Assembly: GCA_001781125.1 (NCBI GenBank)
Contig: MFKT01000001.1
Location: forward strand, 3,630-67,629
From: Candidatus Kaiserbacteria bacterium RIFCSPHIGHO2_01_FULL_53_29
GTDB taxonomy: Bacteria > Patescibacteriota > Minisyncoccia > Phycocordibacterales > UBA2100
Direction of reading: 5' to 3'
Length of the DNA stretch: 64,000 nt
The notes below the pieces were generated by a model, which saw only the letters and a program-made list of their open reading frames with translations, did no database searches and was not told the DNA's origin. A program made the position numbers and the translations under genes. The stretch's first letter is position 1. The number at the start of each line of letters is the position of its first letter. Shown in pieces: positions 5,476 through 53,717 of this stretch.

Positions 5476-7511
5476 ACATGTCTATGAAGACAGCACGACT
5501 TTCTGCGCGCGGGAATATTTTGTTCGGCATTGCCGTGCTTGTGCTTCTGCTCGGCACGATACAGTCGGACGGCGCATTCGTATCTTCTGAAGTACGTTTT
5601 GCTGACGATTCCGCACAGGGTCTTTCGATCGTGCCCGCATCATGTCCCTCAAGTCCGCATGAGACGCCGAGTGAATGTGACGAGCCCGGGTTCAATGAAT
5701 GTTTTCTTTCCGATACTCCACCGGGCATCATCGCAGAGGGCACCACCGCCACGCTGCATTGGGATGCCGGCAAGACAGACTTTACGTATTTGAGCGGAAG
5801 CATCTCTCAGGGCGTCGGTGCCGTCTCATCGGTCGGTTCCATTCCGGTAACGCCCGCGCAGACGACGCAATACGTATACACCGGCACCCGGCAGCATTAT
5901 CAGAGCAGGACCGGACAAGTTCTCTCCTTTTCGTGCAGCACGACGGTCGCGGTGGACTCGCCTCCTATCGACTACTGCCCCAATATCGCGGGCACACAAA
6001 CTTCGGTACCGAGCGGGTATCACACAGAAGACGGCCAATGCGTTCCCGACCCCCAAAAATACTCCTGCAACACGAACAATCAGTGTATAGCTGATTCCAG
6101 CGGTCCGTACACCAGCTCGAGTTGCGACAATGCGTGTGGTTCCGTCGTCCCAAAATACTCCTGCAACGCGAGCAATCAGTGTGTAGCTGATTCCAGCGGT
6201 TCATACACCAGCTCGAGTTGCGACAATGCGTGCGGCGGCGGTAGCAACTCATGTGAAATGTACTTTGAACCGGCATCAATCCCGCCCGACGGCAGCTCAA
6301 CCCTGTATTGGACCGCAGATCATCCGGGCACGATGTATCACTCCGGCGCTACATGGCAGGTTCCTGCGGTTGGCAGCGGAATAAGCGGAGACCTCGAATC
6401 GTATCAGCTCGTAGACAACGTCAACGGTGAGTCATGCACCGCAGAGCTCACGATCCAATGTCCCGCAGGCCAAACGTGGGACGGCACCCAGTGTGTCGGC
6501 CAAAAATACTCCTGCAACACGAACAATCAGTGTATAGCTGATCCCAGCGGTCCGTACACCACCTCAAGCTGCGGGGGCGCGTGTGCACCCGTCCAAAAAT
6601 ACTCCTGCAACACGAACAACCAGTGTGCGTTGGACTCGAACGGTCCGTACACATCCTCGAATTGCAACAACATCTGCGGCAGTGGCGGAGGATTTTCCTG
6701 CAACGCGGGCAATCAGTGCGTGGCGAGTCCCAGCGGTTCATACGCTACCTCGAACTGCAACAATGCGTGTGGCGGTGGCAGCTGCTCCAAGAGCCCCTAT
6801 TGCGACGACGATACCAACGCGCATTACAGCGTCAGCGCAAGCTGCCAGTACGTTTCAGACGGGGACTGTGATGGCGGTGGTTCCTGCACCAAAAAACCCT
6901 ACTGCGATGCCGGCACCAACAAGCAATACGGCGTAAGCGCTAGTTGCCAATATGTTGCAGGCGGCAGCTGCATCGAATGTCCAGGTAACCAAAGTAAGAT
7001 CTGGAACCCTACGACGCACCAATTTGAGTGTAGGGTAACCGGATGTCCATTACCGGTCTACTACTGCCAAGCTGACAACTTGTGCCACCGCACATACGGA
7101 AGCTCCCCGGAATGTCAACCAAACAACAGCTGTTCTGCCTGTGCATACGGATGCACGCAAAGCGGATCGAGCTCTTCATGCAATCCGCCGCCCGCGCCCG
7201 AGATCGTGACGTGGAACGTGCACCCGACTCTGGTTCACCGTGAGAGCACTGTGCAGGTTGAATGGGAAGCCAAAAACGTCCGATCGTGCACTGTTAGGGG
7301 CACGAATAGCGACGGCACAGGGAATAATGCCACCGGTGTGTGGGGCGGCACGGCCGGTAGCACTCACAATCTGAGCGGTACTAAAACATCAAGCCCTATT
7401 ACTGCGCAGACTATCTACACAATTGTCTGTCAGCCGGTTCCCGAGTCTGTATCCTCTCCCGTTAGCCGCTCGACGACTGTCAACATCATCCCCATTTTTC
7501 AGGAACAGTAG
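5472..7511 (+). CDS. Secreted cysteine-rich tandem-repeat protein
   Basis: Signal peptide (MKTARLSARGNILFGIAVLVLLLGTIQS) is followed by at least 5 copies of a roughly 39-aa unit KYSCNTNNQC[IV]ADSSGPYTSSSC[DN]NACG and 2 copies of a second unit PYCD..T...Y.VSASCQYV..G.C. The C-terminal region is also Cys-rich. Confidence 0.7.
   Translation: MNMSMKTARLSARGNILFGIAVLVLLLGTIQSDGAFVSSEVRFADDSAQGLSIVPASCPSSPHETPSECDEPGFNECFLSDTPPGIIAEGTTATLHWDAGKTDFTYLSGSISQGVGAVSSVGSIPVTPAQTTQYVYTGTRQHYQSRTGQVLSFSCSTTVAVDSPPIDYCPNIAGTQTSVPSGYHTEDGQCVPDPQKYSCNTNNQCIADSSGPYTSSSCDNACGSVVPKYSCNASNQCVADSSGSYTSSSCDNACGGGSNSCEMYFEPASIPPDGSSTLYWTADHPGTMYHSGATWQVPAVGSGISGDLESYQLVDNVNGESCTAELTIQCPAGQTWDGTQCVGQKYSCNTNNQCIADPSGPYTTSSCGGACAPVQKYSCNTNNQCALDSNGPYTSSNCNNICGSGGGFSCNAGNQCVASPSGSYATSNCNNACGGGSCSKSPYCDDDTNAHYSVSASCQYVSDGDCDGGGSCTKKPYCDAGTNKQYGVSASCQYVAGGSCIECPGNQSKIWNPTTHQFECRVTGCPLPVYYCQADNLCHRTYGSSPECQPNNSCSACAYGCTQSGSSSSCNPPPAPEIVTWNVHPTLVHRESTVQVEWEAKNVRSCTVRGTNSDGTGNNATGVWGGTAGSTHNLSGTKTSSPITAQTIYTIVCQPVPESVSSPVSRSTTVNIIPIFQEQ
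6040..6790 (+). repeat. About 117-bp tandem DNA repeats inside the Cys-rich protein gene
   Basis: Near-identical nucleotide blocks (aaatactcctgcaacacgaacaatcagtgtatagctgat...cagctcgagttgcgacaatgcgtg) recur at roughly 6058, 6166, 6490 and 6598. Confidence 0.7.
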
Positions 7512-43932: not shown

Positions 43933-44474
43933 AAACAAAACAAAGCCAGAAAAACTCTGTCCTGTCGATCTTTATAGAACCTTTATTCCGTAATGCTGCG
44001 CAAAACAGAATATGGAAGAACGTGAATAACATGTACTTATGTGGAGATGGCGAGAATTGCACTCGCGTCCAGAGAAGAGAATATGAACGATTCTACACAA
44101 CGTAGATTATTCTGAATTTTCGTCGCGGTGCATCAAGAACAATCAAAAGTGCATCGCGCTTACCTCTCTTTCTTGAAAGCAGTGCGCGGAGTGACGCAGA
44201 GCTCGAGTCAATTGATTATGGCGTTCGAATCAGAGCAAATGACAACTGCTGATTGAACGGTCGTTCGAGCTGTTTAGGCAAAAACGAGGCCGAGGTCTTT
44301 CGCCTGAATCGGAGAAAGAACCCCCCGTGCTACTTTGTTCGCACTTGAGTTTTGAGGCAGTTTAAAAAGATGCCACAACTTTGTTGCGCACAGACATATT
44401 CCTATTTCCCTGTCGAAACTGATCATCCCCCACCCACGATTCTACGAGAGAATCATGGGTGGGGAAGGACAAGG

Positions 44475-50233: not shown

Positions 50234-50304
50234 GCGCCCATAGCTCAATGGTAGAGCGACCGTCTTATACACGGTCTACCTAGGTTCGATTCCTAGTGGG
50301 CGTA
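50234..50304 (+). tRNA. tRNA, apparent anticodon UAU (Ile, AUA-reading) by manual cloverleaf folding; CCA not encoded
   Basis: GCGCCCA-TA-GCTC-AATGGTA-GAGC-G-ACCGT-CTTATAC-ACGGT-CTAC-CTAGG-TTCGATT-CCTAG-TGGGCGT-A. There is a G1·U72 wobble. A TTGAAA..TAGAGT promoter-like sequence lies upstream. Confidence 0.7.
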
Positions 50305-50358
50305 TAAGTGAACTTTGCTGTGAATTGCGAGGTTGCACCCTCGGCTCGCCGTGCGACA

Positions 50359-52701
50359 ATGAGTGGCATGCGATACGTTGTTCGGATTCCTGCGCTAGCT
50401 GCATGTCTAGCCGCTTTTCTCTTTCTCTTCCTCCCTCATGCAAGCTTTGCGGCGACTGTCACGGTAACGATGGGGGCAAATTCTTTCTCGCCCAAAAATA
50501 TCACGGTCAATTCCGGCGACACGGTCACGTGGGTCAACAGCAGCAGCATGGCGCACACTGCAACGGCCGACAACGGCAGCTTCGATAGCGGAACGGTGGC
50601 TGCGGGACAGAGCTACGGAGCGATATTCAATGCACCCGGCATCTACGCGTATTATTGCAAACTCCACGGTAGCCCCGGTGGGATAAGTATGGCAGGTACT
50701 ATTACGGTTGTCGCGGGCGCAACCCCGACGAGCGGAGCTGTCGGGGCCCCACCCAGTGCGTCGGGGCTGCAGGCGCAAGCACAGGCACTCCTCAATCAAA
50801 TTGCGGCACTCAAGCAACAGCTGGGATATGGTGGCACTTCGGGAACCGCGATCACGACGACTTCAGGGAGCGGCATCTCCACGTATTCGGCCGCGTGTCC
50901 GCTCATCGGGAGGAATCTCTCACAGGGCGCGAGCGGTGACGATGTGTCGCGTCTCCAGCAATTTCTCGCGCAGGACACTGCGGTCTATCCGGAGGCGATC
51001 GTGTCGGGATATTATGGAAGTTTGACTCAGACGGCAGTGCAGCGATGGCAGGCGAAGTACAATATCGTCTCGTCAGGTACGCCAAGCTCGACCGGCTACG
51101 GTGTCGTCGGTCCGCGCACGGCGGCAGCGATCGCTATCATTTGTGCCGGCGGCAGCATCAATGGCATCTCCGCAACGGCAGTGAGCCCGCCTCCTGCATC
51201 TGTCAGCGGTGTTGTCAGCGTGACACCGATCGTGGGGGACGCACCCCTTACGGTCAATGTTACCGCGACACTCAATACGGCCGGCTCATGCGCCGGCGGC
51301 CTTTACACACTCGATTTTGGCGATGGCGCTCCTGTGCAGCAAATTACTGTTCCGGCTGGTAATTGTGGACAATTGAGTCAGACCTATCCGCATACGTTCC
51401 GATACGGTGGCAGTTACTCCATCACTCTTTCGGCAGGAGTGCACCGTCAATCCGCGACAGTCACCGTCACCGGTCCTGCAGCGCCTCCGCCGCGGAAAAC
51501 AACGCCCGGTCTGCCGAAAGAATCTTTCAAGGTCTCTCCTACCTCGGGTACAACACCGCTTACCGTTACGTTCTCGGGCGTCGTCAACAGCAACGATGCG
51601 GGATTCTGTAACGGCGGTTGTGCCTCTGTTCTCGACTTTGGCGATGGCACGTCCGGGACGGTCGATCTTCCCGCCTCTGTCGGGGGATGGCTTGAGTACA
51701 GCATCACGCATACCTATACGACGGCGGGGGGATTCAAGACGACTCTGTATCAGGGCGGTGCGGGCGTCTCACAGCCGAAGGTCGGGTCGGCAACGATCGT
51801 TGTCTCGGTCGGCACCCCGTCGTTTTCTGCGATACCCGCATCCGGTCCCTCGCCACTTGCTGTCGGCTTTTCTGCGACTGGTCTTTCTCCAAGCGGCCTC
51901 TACGGGATCAATTATGCCGATGGAACGGCCATTGCGCGCTTCACGGGAAGCGCCGCTCCCGGCACGCAAAGCCCGTGGACGCATACCTACTCGACTCCTG
52001 GCACATTCTCGGCCCAACTTCTCTCGTATCAGGCGTCCACGAGTGGCTGCCAAGGCAGTTGTGCCTCGACCCCGACGGTCATAGGCACGGTACCGGTCAA
52101 TGTTTCCGGCACCCCCGCCGGCTCTGCCGCGCTCTCGGTATATCCGACCTCCGGCGTGGCGCCAGTCAACGTTTCATTCACGGCGAATATCAGCCCGACA
52201 AGCGGCACGCACAGCATTAATTTTGGCGATGGCTCTCCGGCGCAAACCTTCGGCTGCGCGACCGGCTCAACGTGTGCCACGCACTGGCAGATCAATCACA
52301 CGTACGCGACGGGCGGCACATTTGTGGCGCGGCTCAGCACGGGATCGGGCTCTCAAGTCGGGGCGGCCACGGTTACCGTTTCCGGCGGTTCGACGAATCC
52401 GACGAATCCCACAAATCCTCCAAATTCTTATCCGTACAATCCGCCCCTGCTCTCCGGTGGCAGTGACTCGCTTTCATTCAATGTGCAGTTTGACCTGCCA
52501 TCCTCGTGCACGGGCTACGATCTCTCTTGGGGCGATGGCACGTCTCATGTCGTGCAGAGTGACGGAGGCTCCTCGTGTGCGCAGAGTATTGCTACTCCAT
52601 CTCTTTCTCACACGTATAGTTCCGAGGGCTCATACACCATCGTTTTGAAACGTGGACCGACGCTTTCCCAGATCAACGACATCGAAATAACCACTCAATA
52701 A
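50359..52701 (+). CDS. Secreted multidomain protein: cupredoxin (blue-copper) domain, a peptidoglycan-binding (PG_binding_1-like) domain and about 5 PKD-like (FGDG) domains
   Basis: Signal peptide. Cupredoxin ligands HTATADNG...YYCKLHGSPGGISMAG. The PG-binding motif is GASGDDVSRLQQFLAQ...YYGSLTQTAVQRWQAKYNI. Repeated ...LDFGDGxxx.../INYADGT/SINFGDGS/DLSWGDGTS units are present. The listed ORF begins at an upstream GTG. Confidence 0.7.
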   Translation: MSGMRYVVRIPALAACLAAFLFLFLPHASFAATVTVTMGANSFSPKNITVNSGDTVTWVNSSSMAHTATADNGSFDSGTVAAGQSYGAIFNAPGIYAYYCKLHGSPGGISMAGTITVVAGATPTSGAVGAPPSASGLQAQAQALLNQIAALKQQLGYGGTSGTAITTTSGSGISTYSAACPLIGRNLSQGASGDDVSRLQQFLAQDTAVYPEAIVSGYYGSLTQTAVQRWQAKYNIVSSGTPSSTGYGVVGPRTAAAIAIICAGGSINGISATAVSPPPASVSGVVSVTPIVGDAPLTVNVTATLNTAGSCAGGLYTLDFGDGAPVQQITVPAGNCGQLSQTYPHTFRYGGSYSITLSAGVHRQSATVTVTGPAAPPPRKTTPGLPKESFKVSPTSGTTPLTVTFSGVVNSNDAGFCNGGCASVLDFGDGTSGTVDLPASVGGWLEYSITHTYTTAGGFKTTLYQGGAGVSQPKVGSATIVVSVGTPSFSAIPASGPSPLAVGFSATGLSPSGLYGINYADGTAIARFTGSAAPGTQSPWTHTYSTPGTFSAQLLSYQASTSGCQGSCASTPTVIGTVPVNVSGTPAGSAALSVYPTSGVAPVNVSFTANISPTSGTHSINFGDGSPAQTFGCATGSTCATHWQINHTYATGGTFVARLSTGSGSQVGAATVTVSGGSTNPTNPTNPPNSYPYNPPLLSGGSDSLSFNVQFDLPSSCTGYDLSWGDGTSHVVQSDGGSSCAQSIATPSLSHTYSSEGSYTIVLKRGPTLSQINDIEITTQ

Positions 52702-52723
52702 CGAGTATCAAATTTAGGCCCCG

Positions 52724-52869
52724 ATGATATGCCCGGTAGGACAATTTCGAATCGCCTTGATATGAATATTTACCAGCGTATGACGAGAAAAATTGATTCG
52801 AGAATTTTGCAGCCATTCGTCGTTGATACCGCGGCAAGAATTATTCGAAATTGTACTGACCGGGTATGA
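52724..52869 (+). repeat. Copy D of the roughly 140-bp cassette, outside the ribosomal cluster, upstream of a secreted PG-binding protein gene
   Basis: gaTATG|CCCGGTAGG...CTGACCGGG|TATGa. The 35-aa uORF MNIYQRMTRKIDSRILQPFVVDTAARIIRNCTDRV has an ATGA overlap with the downstream ATG. Paired substitutions (C to T in the 5' arm, G to A in the 3' arm) keep the closing helix intact. A 1-nt insertion fuses uORF1 and uORF2 in frame. Confidence 0.8.
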
Positions 52870-53717
52870 GAAAAATACGGTTCGCAGGAATTGCAACGCT
52901 GCTCGCAGGTATTTGTGCGACGCCATTCTTTGCGGCAGCTTTGAGCGGCGACGATATCAAGGCGCAGATTGCGGCAATCCTTGCTCAGATCGCTGCGACC
53001 CAGGGGAAAGCGCAGTCCGTACCATCTGTCCAGTCCGTCCAATCTCTTCCCCCCGTGCAGCCGCTTTCCCCGAACCAATCGCAGGGAGGGGCGTGTCCGG
53101 TACTTTCCCGCTCGCTCTCGCTTGGTGCACAGGGCCTGGATGTGCTCTCGCTCCAGCAATTCCTCATCGCGCAGAATTCCGCGAGTACCGGATCGGCGAC
53201 CGGCTACTTCAACGCGCAGACCGAAGTTGCCGTACAAAAATGGCAATCATCGCACGGGCTCGTCTCCTCCGGTGACGCGGGATCGACCGGATGGGGAGTG
53301 GTGGGTCCGCGCACAAGAATGCTCATTTCTCTCAATTGTAACCTTCCAACGTCATCTCCGGCGTCGGCTGTCACCGGAAGCCGGTGCCCGAGTGCGCTCC
53401 CGCCTGTGATGCTCTGCTCGACTACTTGGAAGCCGGTCTTGGACGTATACGGTTGTACCACTTCCTACCAATGCTCGGTCCCGCTTTCAGGCGCCACGTC
53501 ACAGAAATCGGTGCAATCAACGACGACAACACCGGCAACAGGCTCGGTCATATCGATCGGTATCCTCTCAAGCAGCTATTGTGTAACTCCGTGGGGCAAC
53601 ATTACGCGGGTTAACGGACAAAGTATCAGCTATATCCCGTATTTCACGAACGGACTAAATAACGGGGGACGCAATCCAAGTGTTTTATGCGACAAAGGCG
53701 TTTGGACGGTGCAGTGA
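52866..53717 (+). CDS. Secreted protein with a PG_binding_1-like domain and a Cys-containing C-terminal domain
   Basis: Signal peptide. LSLGAQGLDVLSLQQFLIAQ...GYFNAQTEVAVQKWQSSHGL is a peptidoglycan-binding-type motif. Confidence 0.65.
   Translation: MRKIRFAGIATLLAGICATPFFAAALSGDDIKAQIAAILAQIAATQGKAQSVPSVQSVQSLPPVQPLSPNQSQGGACPVLSRSLSLGAQGLDVLSLQQFLIAQNSASTGSATGYFNAQTEVAVQKWQSSHGLVSSGDAGSTGWGVVGPRTRMLISLNCNLPTSSPASAVTGSRCPSALPPVMLCSTTWKPVLDVYGCTTSYQCSVPLSGATSQKSVQSTTTTPATGSVISIGILSSSYCVTPWGNITRVNGQSISYIPYFTNGLNNGGRNPSVLCDKGVWTVQ

Follow-up and report, generated by a model that had tools for sequence, protein, structure and literature searches.

Whether a small segment before a gene start is a host leader or a mobile element is the question raised at positions 52728-52868 of a 64,000-nt stretch of Candidatus Kaiserbacteria bacterium RIFCSPHIGHO2_01_FULL_53_29 (contig MFKT01000001.1, positions 3,630 to 67,629; hereafter the window). 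This segment is the fourth copy in the window (copy D) of an element of ~140 nt that carries small open reading frames (ORFs) and whose other copies, A to C, lie among ribosomal protein (r-protein) genes. Our reading, judged likely from comparison of the copies, is that copy D is a non-autonomous member, resembling a miniature inverted-repeat transposable element (MITE), of a family that inserts at start codons and would let ribosomes pass through to the host gene. An initial annotation had placed copy D between a cupredoxin/peptidoglycan (PG)-binding/PKD gene and a PG-binding gene, with which domain matches agree. It had also taken the element to be mobile or modular rather than an ancestral r-protein leader, a view borne out by the empty sites, by absence from 79 of 80 related loci and by the diversity of downstream genes; its description included neither the arms with their inverted repeats nor the target-site duplication, and it made no link to a GIY-YIG gene.

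Copies of the element in the window

Copy D is bounded on both sides by a duplicated target, TATG. The left one (52728..52731, +) contains the left start codon (ATG 52729-52731) that opens the element ORF; the right one (52865..52868, +) contains the ATG (52866-52868) that starts the PG-binding gene, and the next base is A (52869). Between them lie the left inverted-repeat arm CCCGGTAGGACAATTTCGAAT (52732..52752, +), delimited from the sequence and from alignment with copies A to C, a variable interior (52753..52842, +) with an internal start ATGAAT (ATG 52762-52764) and a small hairpin region, and the right inverted-repeat arm ATTCGAAATTGTACTGACCGGG (52843..52864, +), which carries a TGA (52857-52859) in frame with the host ATG. 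The element ORF (52729..52869, +; 46 codons plus stop) traverses the whole element, and its TGA (52867-52869) overlaps the host ATG as ATGA.

Copy A (9894..10033, +) sits on the L2 start codon at the L23|L2 junction, copy B (12019..12158, +) on the L22 start codon at S19|L22, and copy C (14697..14836, +) on the L24 start codon at L14|L24. An nhmmer profile search of the window found no copies beyond these four. With 0-1 mismatch allowed, the arm motif has 8 matches in the window, and with as many as 2 it has 10; shuffling gave a mean of 2.6 matches, none of 100 shuffles reaching 10. In the four-way alignment, identity starts at the left TATG and stops at the right TATG(A), and the flanks are unrelated. 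Identity is thus limited to the span between the TATGs, which rules out origin of copy D by segmental duplication of flanking r-protein DNA, the outcome that the initial annotation had named as able to overturn an independent insertion. On the structural grounds of size, inverted repeats, target duplication and dispersed copies, the window copies are MITEs.

Insertion and target-site duplication

We compared the r-protein cluster with 80 loci of relatives whose L2 proteins are 48-77% identical. The element is absent from 79 of them, and in the sole carrier it occupies another junction, L16|L29. Among the closest relatives, each of copies A, B and C has an exact empty site. The empty L23|L2 site (loci L061, L063 and L067) consists of a stop codon, 4-7 nt ending in T, and then ATGAAAAC...; the S19|L22 site, empty in L070 and L058, reads gaaataatcat|ATGAAAGC in L070; and the empty L14|L24 site of L070 reads atcgtataatcat|ATGAAAATC. 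These sequences equal those at window copies A, B and C minus the element and one TATG. The search for an empty site of copy D gave none: the insertion is present, with the same 164-nt spacer, in each of the 17 public contigs that have the identical PG-binding gene, and the nearest other homologues of this 283-aa protein are at most 53% identical.

The flanks in the family as a whole are YATG on the left (T in 72%, C in 21%) and TATG on the right. There is no extended target motif, no position around the site being informative beyond YATG. Where the flanking 4-mer is odd, it is matched within the copy (TTTG/TTTG, TACG/TACG twice, CATG/CATG, CATA/CATA, TGTG/TGTG), and three copies (L013, L043, L045) show a 5-nt duplication, TATGA/TATGA. 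Matched unusual flanks on both sides are the signature of target-site duplication, and we regard mobile insertion with target duplication as nearly certain.

A second, unrelated family of small insertions occupies the S19|L22 and L14|L24 junctions of two close relatives (L059 1286-1418 and 4170-4276; L060 about 7150-7325). Its members begin ATGA(A/G)CAA..GAATTACA, contain an inner hairpin CCCAGCCCCAGTTTTG...CAAAACTGGAGCTGGG and a 21-codon ORF (MNKVNYRFLTQPQFCKNWSWV), and end ...CTCGCTCGCyAAGmAAAACTAAC directly before the gene ATG, which a TAA precedes by 1 nt. More than one kind of element seems to be drawn to the start-codon junctions of these operons.

Family size and target genes

A scan with the two-arm pattern, taking one genome per species, found 57 loci in 21 assemblies, nearly all Candidatus Kaiserbacteria and related metagenome-assembled genomes of Patescibacteria. 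With a profile hidden Markov model the count is about 68 copies, 4 in the window and about 64 in the 57 loci. The short element measures 135-141 nt between its two ATGs, the longest ORF in copy D having 46 codons, and the interior is ~60-85% identical between copies.

All canonical copies lie in the orientation of the downstream gene, and the right ATG opens an ORF of 92-740 aa. The downstream genes are functionally unrelated, encoding DnaA, FtsW/RodA, cysteinyl-tRNA synthetase, transketolase, ScpA, DksA, ABC transporter parts, D-Ala-D-Ala carboxypeptidase, and the ribosomal proteins S11, L15, L29, L2, L22 and L24. Many are essential, and no preference for secreted-protein genes, a point that the initial annotation had asked to check, is seen among them, nor any for r-protein genes. 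Four copies occupy near-cognate 4-mers that lie 4-21 nt ahead of the real start; these too are sense-oriented, and their ORFs end 5-9 nt before the real ATG. A subfamily with divergent arms has two copies at gene 3′ ends, which lack the internal start. Viral contigs yielded no copies of the short form or of the long form described below, and phage carriage was set aside as a candidate. A search of the whole window against Rfam at gathering thresholds gave no match at the element, and neither did one of 52600-53000 at E ≤ 1.

Reading frames of the short copies

The internal start ATGAAY is conserved (as GTG in 5 copies) and lies 32 or 33 nt after the left ATG. In the 32-nt state the left ATG opens an 11-codon ORF whose TGA overlaps the internal ATG; in the 33-nt state, found in 20 copies including D, the two ORFs are fused in frame. 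Copy D has one more base than copies A to C between the left arm and the internal ATG, which puts ATG 52729 in frame with ATG 52762 and yields the single ORF 52729-52869. The initial annotation had recognised this 1-nt insertion and fusion; the product has 46 codons rather than 47, and the fused arrangement, which it took to be special to copy D, is one of the two standard states. A 13-codon ORF from the flank (52724..52765, +), whose TGA (52763-52765) overlaps the internal ATG at 52762, does end in ATGA as had been noted. Its proposed role as a rescue does not hold: a flank ATG feeding the internal ATGA occurs in only 2 of the 20 33-nt copies, D included, and stands outside the element, so that the 13-codon ORF is probably incidental.

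Copy D combines a left junction of 33 with a right junction of 104. At the right junction two classes can be distinguished. In class 1 the internal and host ATGs are 105 nt apart (or 102, or 108) and the ORF ends at an in-arm stop 6 nt before the host gene; in class 2 they are 104 nt apart (or 107) and the ORF closes with a TGA that shares an ATGA with the host start. Among 55 canonical copies the ORF ends at -9 in 28 and at +1 in 18 (46/55). The class goes with the host sequence: the fourth base of the host gene is A in 18/20 class-2 copies vs 3/31 class-1 copies (Fisher p = 7.5e-9), a value that overstates the support, since copies related by descent are not independent; we estimate ~8 independent class-2 lineages. 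An extra copy in L059 is of class 1 at an ATGA site. Class 2 is not one clade; its members carry single-base differences at different alignment columns, and several, D included, have class-1 nearest neighbors. The earlier idea of an ORF chain ending at the gene start thus stands and appears to be under selection, but ATGA is not its general form, belonging mainly to the second class.

The ORF frame is free of stops in 48/55 copies, vs 20/55 and 4/55 for the two alternative frames. Between classes 1 and 2 the reading frame over this same stretch differs, so that the C-terminal halves of the predicted peptides are unrelated. No constraint on the peptide was detected, the dN/dS of the short ORF being 0.4-0.65 vs 0.56-0.67 for an out-of-frame control. 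With the frame open and the peptide unconstrained, the conserved thing is, to judge from these patterns, not a protein but an uninterrupted route for ribosomes that begins at the left ATG and is closed by a stop where the host gene starts.

Inverted arms and predicted RNA fold

The arms, of 21 and 22 nt, are Watson-Crick complementary at 1273/1280 paired positions. Compensated changes occur at four arm positions (for example C:G in 22 copies vs T:A in 42), and subfamilies and divergent relatives have different arms that are still complementary. The asymmetry between the arms, one bulged base and one mismatch, is itself conserved and serves to place a stop triplet in the right arm: TAG, TAA or TGA stands at -9, in the frame of the host ATG, in 66 of 67 aligned copies. 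The element ends are CCCGG...CCGGG. The predicted RNA fold has a 24-bp terminal helix that includes the host AUG in its pairing, with a folding z of -3.9 to -5.6. Arm mismatches comprise two G-T and two A-C; with no excess of G-T, selection on the helix at the DNA level is not told apart from selection at the RNA level.

A long form encoding a GIY-YIG nuclease

Locus L034 contains, at 3503-3193 (-), a longer element of ~310 nt with the same flanks and arms. Its 93-codon ORF (MPGRTISNRFYYVYVLES...) opens at the left ATG and matches Pfam GIY-YIG with E = 4e-17. In the long form generally, the ORF begins with the left ATG and closes within the right arm, 6 nt short of the host ATG. The long-form nucleases have 93-99 aa, a single catalytic domain of ~95 aa that is UPF0213/Slx1-like; the closest solved proteins are BH0048 (PDB 1zg2) and EF2693 (1ywl), with E = 1e-5 and 3e-3. 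A protein search at E ≤ 1e-8 found 242 homologs. Close ones (60-88% identity) start with MPGRTISN, a translation of the left arm, and many of them finish with ...NNSKLY or ...NYSKLY, translated from the right arm as far as its in-arm stop; the first 8 and last 6 codons of the GIY-YIG ORF are thus the arms themselves.

Six further contexts (L138, L146, L147, L148, L149 and one JGI contig) have the gene between two host genes on the same strand. In five of the six, 1-17 nt separate the upstream stop codon from the left ATG, the spacer in L148 being 85 nt, and the nuclease ORF stops 5-6 nt before the downstream ATG, with a 25-nt gap for the 93-aa form. Of the five contexts read as DNA, L138, L146, L147 and L149 have TATG on both sides, and L148 has ATG on the right only. 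The arms are compensated in divergent members of the long form, and the core of the nuclease is under strong purifying selection (dN/dS 0.05-0.13 where dS is not saturated). This start-codon arrangement is not universal among UPF0213-like genes: the distant homolog P0170, from a 2.6-Mb genome, lacks it. To our knowledge the GIY-YIG nucleases are not a transposase family.

Long and short forms co-occur in the L034 assembly and in the sample series of the window's organism. Among 137 loci and the window, no orphan arms or longer arm pairs were found other than the L034 GIY-YIG form, the remaining matches being coding sequence or chance. Nor was a DDE, serine, tyrosine or HUH enzyme found between such arms in the fetched loci, which are short stretches around the copies. 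A relationship between the short element and the GIY-YIG element is probable, and the short form is probably a deletion derivative of the long one; since the two share only their terminal ~30 nt, it could instead be merely cross-mobilized by it. Opinion is evenly balanced on the wider proposal that the ~310-bp form represents an unrecognized class of autonomous element, the smallest known, with the 140-nt copies as its non-autonomous derivatives. Such an element would consist entirely of one nuclease gene, inverted repeats included; it would insert at start codons, have its gene expressed by the initiation signals of the host, and then hand the ribosome back to the host gene.

One full-length GIY-YIG element, P0098 (24 contigs; L138 1501-1782), sits on the start codon of an RNase III gene (1808-2494), RNase III being the enzyme expected to cut the element's long RNA helix. 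In L036 a small GIY-YIG gene (330-640), its product 51% identical to the L034 protein, adjoins a tRNA gene and is flanked by a different inverted repeat of ~24 nt (GCCCCCgTCACCaGAAAAGCTCT). In these genomes, small GIY-YIG genes may often be bordered by inverted repeats.

Initiation context and proposed mechanism

A long ORF on the same strand closes just ahead of the left ATG at 36 of the 57 copies, mostly by 4-9 nt, and three of these upstream ORFs overlap it as ATGA; such tight gene junctions are presumably translationally coupled. Among the remaining 21 copies, eight carry a -10-like hexamer whose first base is 11-16 nt upstream of the ATG, vs 0-2 in control windows; this is the spacing expected for leaderless transcripts. 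A Shine-Dalgarno-like sequence occurs in a few copies. The right (host) ATG has no Shine-Dalgarno sequence of its own.

These observations can be assembled into the following scheme. The GIY-YIG nuclease would mobilize both forms. On insertion the duplicated left ATG would inherit the host initiation signals, whether a nearby upstream stop codon or a promoter placed for a leaderless transcript, and the right ATG would lose them. The long form, without expression signals of its own, would be translated from those of the host gene. Ribosomes starting at the left ATG would read through the element and melt the 24-bp helix that pairs the host AUG. Termination, 6 nt short of the host ATG or at an ATGA overlapping it, would be followed by reinitiation on the host gene; copy D would take the second route, through its single ORF 52729-52869 of 46 codons ending in ATGA. 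The short form would have lost the nuclease and kept the pass-through ORF, its phasing tuned to the local host sequence. Termination and reinitiation onto the host gene would, we propose, make insertion nearly neutral even before essential genes. We think it likely that translational pass-through is the reason for the ORF architecture of these elements.

Weighing the explanations

Several observations weigh against this scheme. The functional steps (mobility conferred by the GIY-YIG nuclease, translation of the ORF, reinitiation on the host gene) are all read from comparative sequence. No GIY-YIG gene lies within the 64-kb window, whose copies encode no nuclease, and beyond the ~30 terminal nt shared at each end, homology between the interiors of the short and long elements is not convincing. 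About 10 of the 55 copies have a premature stop or some other irregular path, and the left ORF has only 3 codons in L013 and L043. A 4-nt target cannot by itself explain the near-exclusive sense placement on start codons; by a rough count, intergenic TATG sites that are not starts should outnumber start-codon TATGs several-fold, so that some targeting step or strong selection is needed. Finally, the overhangs left by GIY-YIG enzymes characterized to date are of 2 nt (cited in PMC2761285), which do not obviously explain a 4-nt duplication.

The mobility of the element could be due instead to a DDE transposase outside the sample, of which an IS1380/piggyBac-like enzyme is a candidate, with the element an ordinary MITE and the GIY-YIG ORF a passenger or independent occupant. 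IS1380/piggyBac elements have CC(C)...(G)GG ends and 4-5 bp duplications, which the CCCGG...CCGGG ends and the 4-nt duplication (5 nt in L013, L043 and L045) resemble; inverted arms with such a duplication are the classic mark of cut-and-paste transposition. The interior of the short form, moreover, is unrelated to the GIY-YIG gene, and a transposase elsewhere in these genomes would be missed where only short stretches around the copies were fetched. What makes this explanation unlikely is that the arm codons within the GIY-YIG ORF persist in divergent members with compensated arms, pointing to an old and intimate association of gene and arms, that the 137 loci hold no other orphan arm or longer arm pair, and that the nuclease is under strong purifying selection. 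A role for RNA processing, in which RNase III would cut the 24-bp helix as in rRNA intervening sequences and leave a leaderless host mRNA beginning near the AUG, draws on the length and near-perfection of a helix that includes the host AUG, on the several target genes that look leaderless natively, on the autonomous copy that precedes an RNase III gene, and on reports of non-intron insertions with GIY-YIG genes and of short ORF-less insertions in rRNA genes of the Candidate Phyla Radiation (CPR) (PMC11270868). Processing alone predicts neither an ORF open in one frame, nor its stop at -9 or +1, nor the link of frame class to the fourth base, and the arms lack the excess of G-T over A-C that RNA-only selection might allow; we consider it improbable as a sole explanation, though it could act alongside pass-through.

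Two further explanations place the function in the host or in the peptide. A cis-regulatory leader for r-protein and cell-wall genes, either a structured RNA or a leader-peptide attenuator, would fit the invariable sense position directly upstream of a gene, the stable fold and the conserved small ORFs. It is very improbable: the element is missing at the orthologous junctions in 79 of the 80 relatives, and these empty sites largely refute a leader; flank duplications mark it as an insertion, the downstream genes share no function, the interior is poorly conserved and the peptide unconstrained, and Rfam has no match even at E ≤ 1. That the product of the short ORF is a small protein with a function, perhaps as toxin or regulator, and the element is simply a tiny gene, might be argued from its conserved ATG or GTG start and from the 48 of 55 copies in which it is open. 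The dN/dS of 0.4-0.65, no different from the out-of-frame control, the two frames that yield unrelated C-terminal halves from the same nucleotides, and a C-terminus set by the insertion site leave this proposal with very little probability. Start-codon insertion with ribosome pass-through is our preferred reading of copy D.

Genomic surroundings

The host gene downstream of copy D (52866..53717, +) encodes 283 aa with a PG_binding_1 domain, its ORF starting at the element's right ATG. The upstream gene (50308..52701, +) encodes 797 aa with cupredoxin, PG_binding_1 and PKD domains and stops 27 nt before the left ATG; no promoter-like or terminator-like site was found between it and copy D. A tRNA gene identified by Rfam (50234-50304, +) lies just upstream of this cupredoxin/PKD gene. 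Contig L155 (Logan SRR2090155_2748966) starts 26 nt before the PG-binding gene, that is, inside the element (contig positions 1-26), an assembly break of the kind that repeats cause.

Elsewhere in the window Rfam identifies a tmRNA gene at 44039-44430 (-). In the r-protein cluster, heptamer-like repeat runs (NNCCTAG)n at 11631-11665, 12567-12615 and 13334-13368 sit just upstream of the S19, S3 and L16 start codons. The cluster is broken by two pairs of small overlapping ORFs, one between L2 and S19 (10928-11523, +) and the other between L5 and S8 (15687-16267, -); both resemble toxin-antitoxin pairs (MazEF-like, RelE/YoeB-like), by eye only. S5 is followed directly by L15 (18653-19781) with no L30 gene between, an order typical of CPR/Patescibacteria genomes and in keeping with the Kaiserbacteria affiliation to which the distribution of the element points.

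Implications

If the preferred reading is true, a selfish element settles before essential genes of a very compact genome without harm, the tolerant targets including DnaA, FtsW, tRNA synthetases and ribosomal proteins. The single-domain GIY-YIG nuclease would join the enzymes that drive elements with inverted repeats and target duplications, and the widespread, uncharacterized small GIY-YIG proteins would gain a testable function. On the wider proposal of a new autonomous class, many small GIY-YIG/UPF0213 genes now annotated as repair proteins would, by extension, be mobile elements of this kind, as would some of the non-intron insertions in CPR rRNA genes. The match of frame to the fourth host nucleotide, copy by copy, amounts to a natural experiment on termination-reinitiation that is unusually clean. 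The elements also bear on annotation: at their sites gene callers will misplace starts or call spurious small genes, and assemblies break inside the element, as in L155.

Relation to known systems

MITEs within transcription units are familiar in bacteria, among them Correia/NEMIS in Neisseria, ERIC in enterobacteria and RPE in Rickettsia. These are multicopy elements of ~100-160 bp with terminal inverted repeats that form a long hairpin in the transcript and with short target duplications; they lack a transposase and are co-transcribed with host genes, and RPEs are tolerated in coding sequence by staying in frame. Our element is like them in size, copy number, inverted repeats and duplication. 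The known families are not known to be tied to start codons, occur in both orientations, and have DDE transposases as their known partners; ours differs in its strict sense-strand placement on start codons, in its phased pass-through ORF, and in a longer partner that is filled entirely by a GIY-YIG nuclease gene. We know of no Correia/NEMIS, ERIC or RPE element with an ORF phased to end at a host start codon.

Termination-reinitiation at overlapping or adjacent stop and start codons (ATGA, TAATG) couples genes in bacterial operons. As in such coupled cistrons, the element ORF stops within a few nt of the next start, which is not preceded by its own Shine-Dalgarno sequence and lies inside a helix that would have to be unwound by the upstream ribosome. 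Unlike them, the upstream ORF comes from a mobile insertion, with its phasing fitted copy by copy to the fourth nucleotide of the host gene.

Our full-text literature searches found no prior description of such elements. The nearest report concerns CPR bacteria, whose rRNA genes contain insertions that code for GIY-YIG proteins but belong to neither the group I nor the group II introns, together with many short (<200 bp) uncharacterized insertions (Tsurumaki et al., 2024; PMC11270868). Those come from the same bacterial radiation as our element and lie in rRNA genes, not at protein start codons; the text of PMC11270868 has no occurrence of inverted repeats.

The UPF0213 proteins BH0048 and EF2693 have been placed in the Slx-1 cluster, with predicted roles in double-strand-break repair, and a GIY-YIG domain has been described as "very recently inserted" into an HsdR gene (PMC1564403). 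Single-domain size and the GIY-YIG Pfam match are common to UPF0213/Slx1-like proteins and the long-form nuclease. The literature treats UPF0213 proteins as putative host repair factors, unlike the element setting of the long form, and in the literature searched they are not described with inverted-repeat borders, target duplications or start-codon placement.

Free-standing homing endonuclease genes of the GIY-YIG superfamily, such as the T4 seg genes in passages of PMC2988022, are likewise small selfish nuclease genes, wedged between host genes and polymorphic among relatives. The nuclease superfamily is shared by the long form only. Homing endonucleases have a DNA-binding domain and a long specific target, and copy themselves into the cognate allele without inverted repeats or duplication. 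Here one long cognate target free of duplication is not found; dozens of non-homologous insertion sites share only YATG. The long form differs from homing genes in having the catalytic domain only, a target of ~4 nt and many unrelated sites per genome, together with arms, a target duplication and non-autonomous derivatives.

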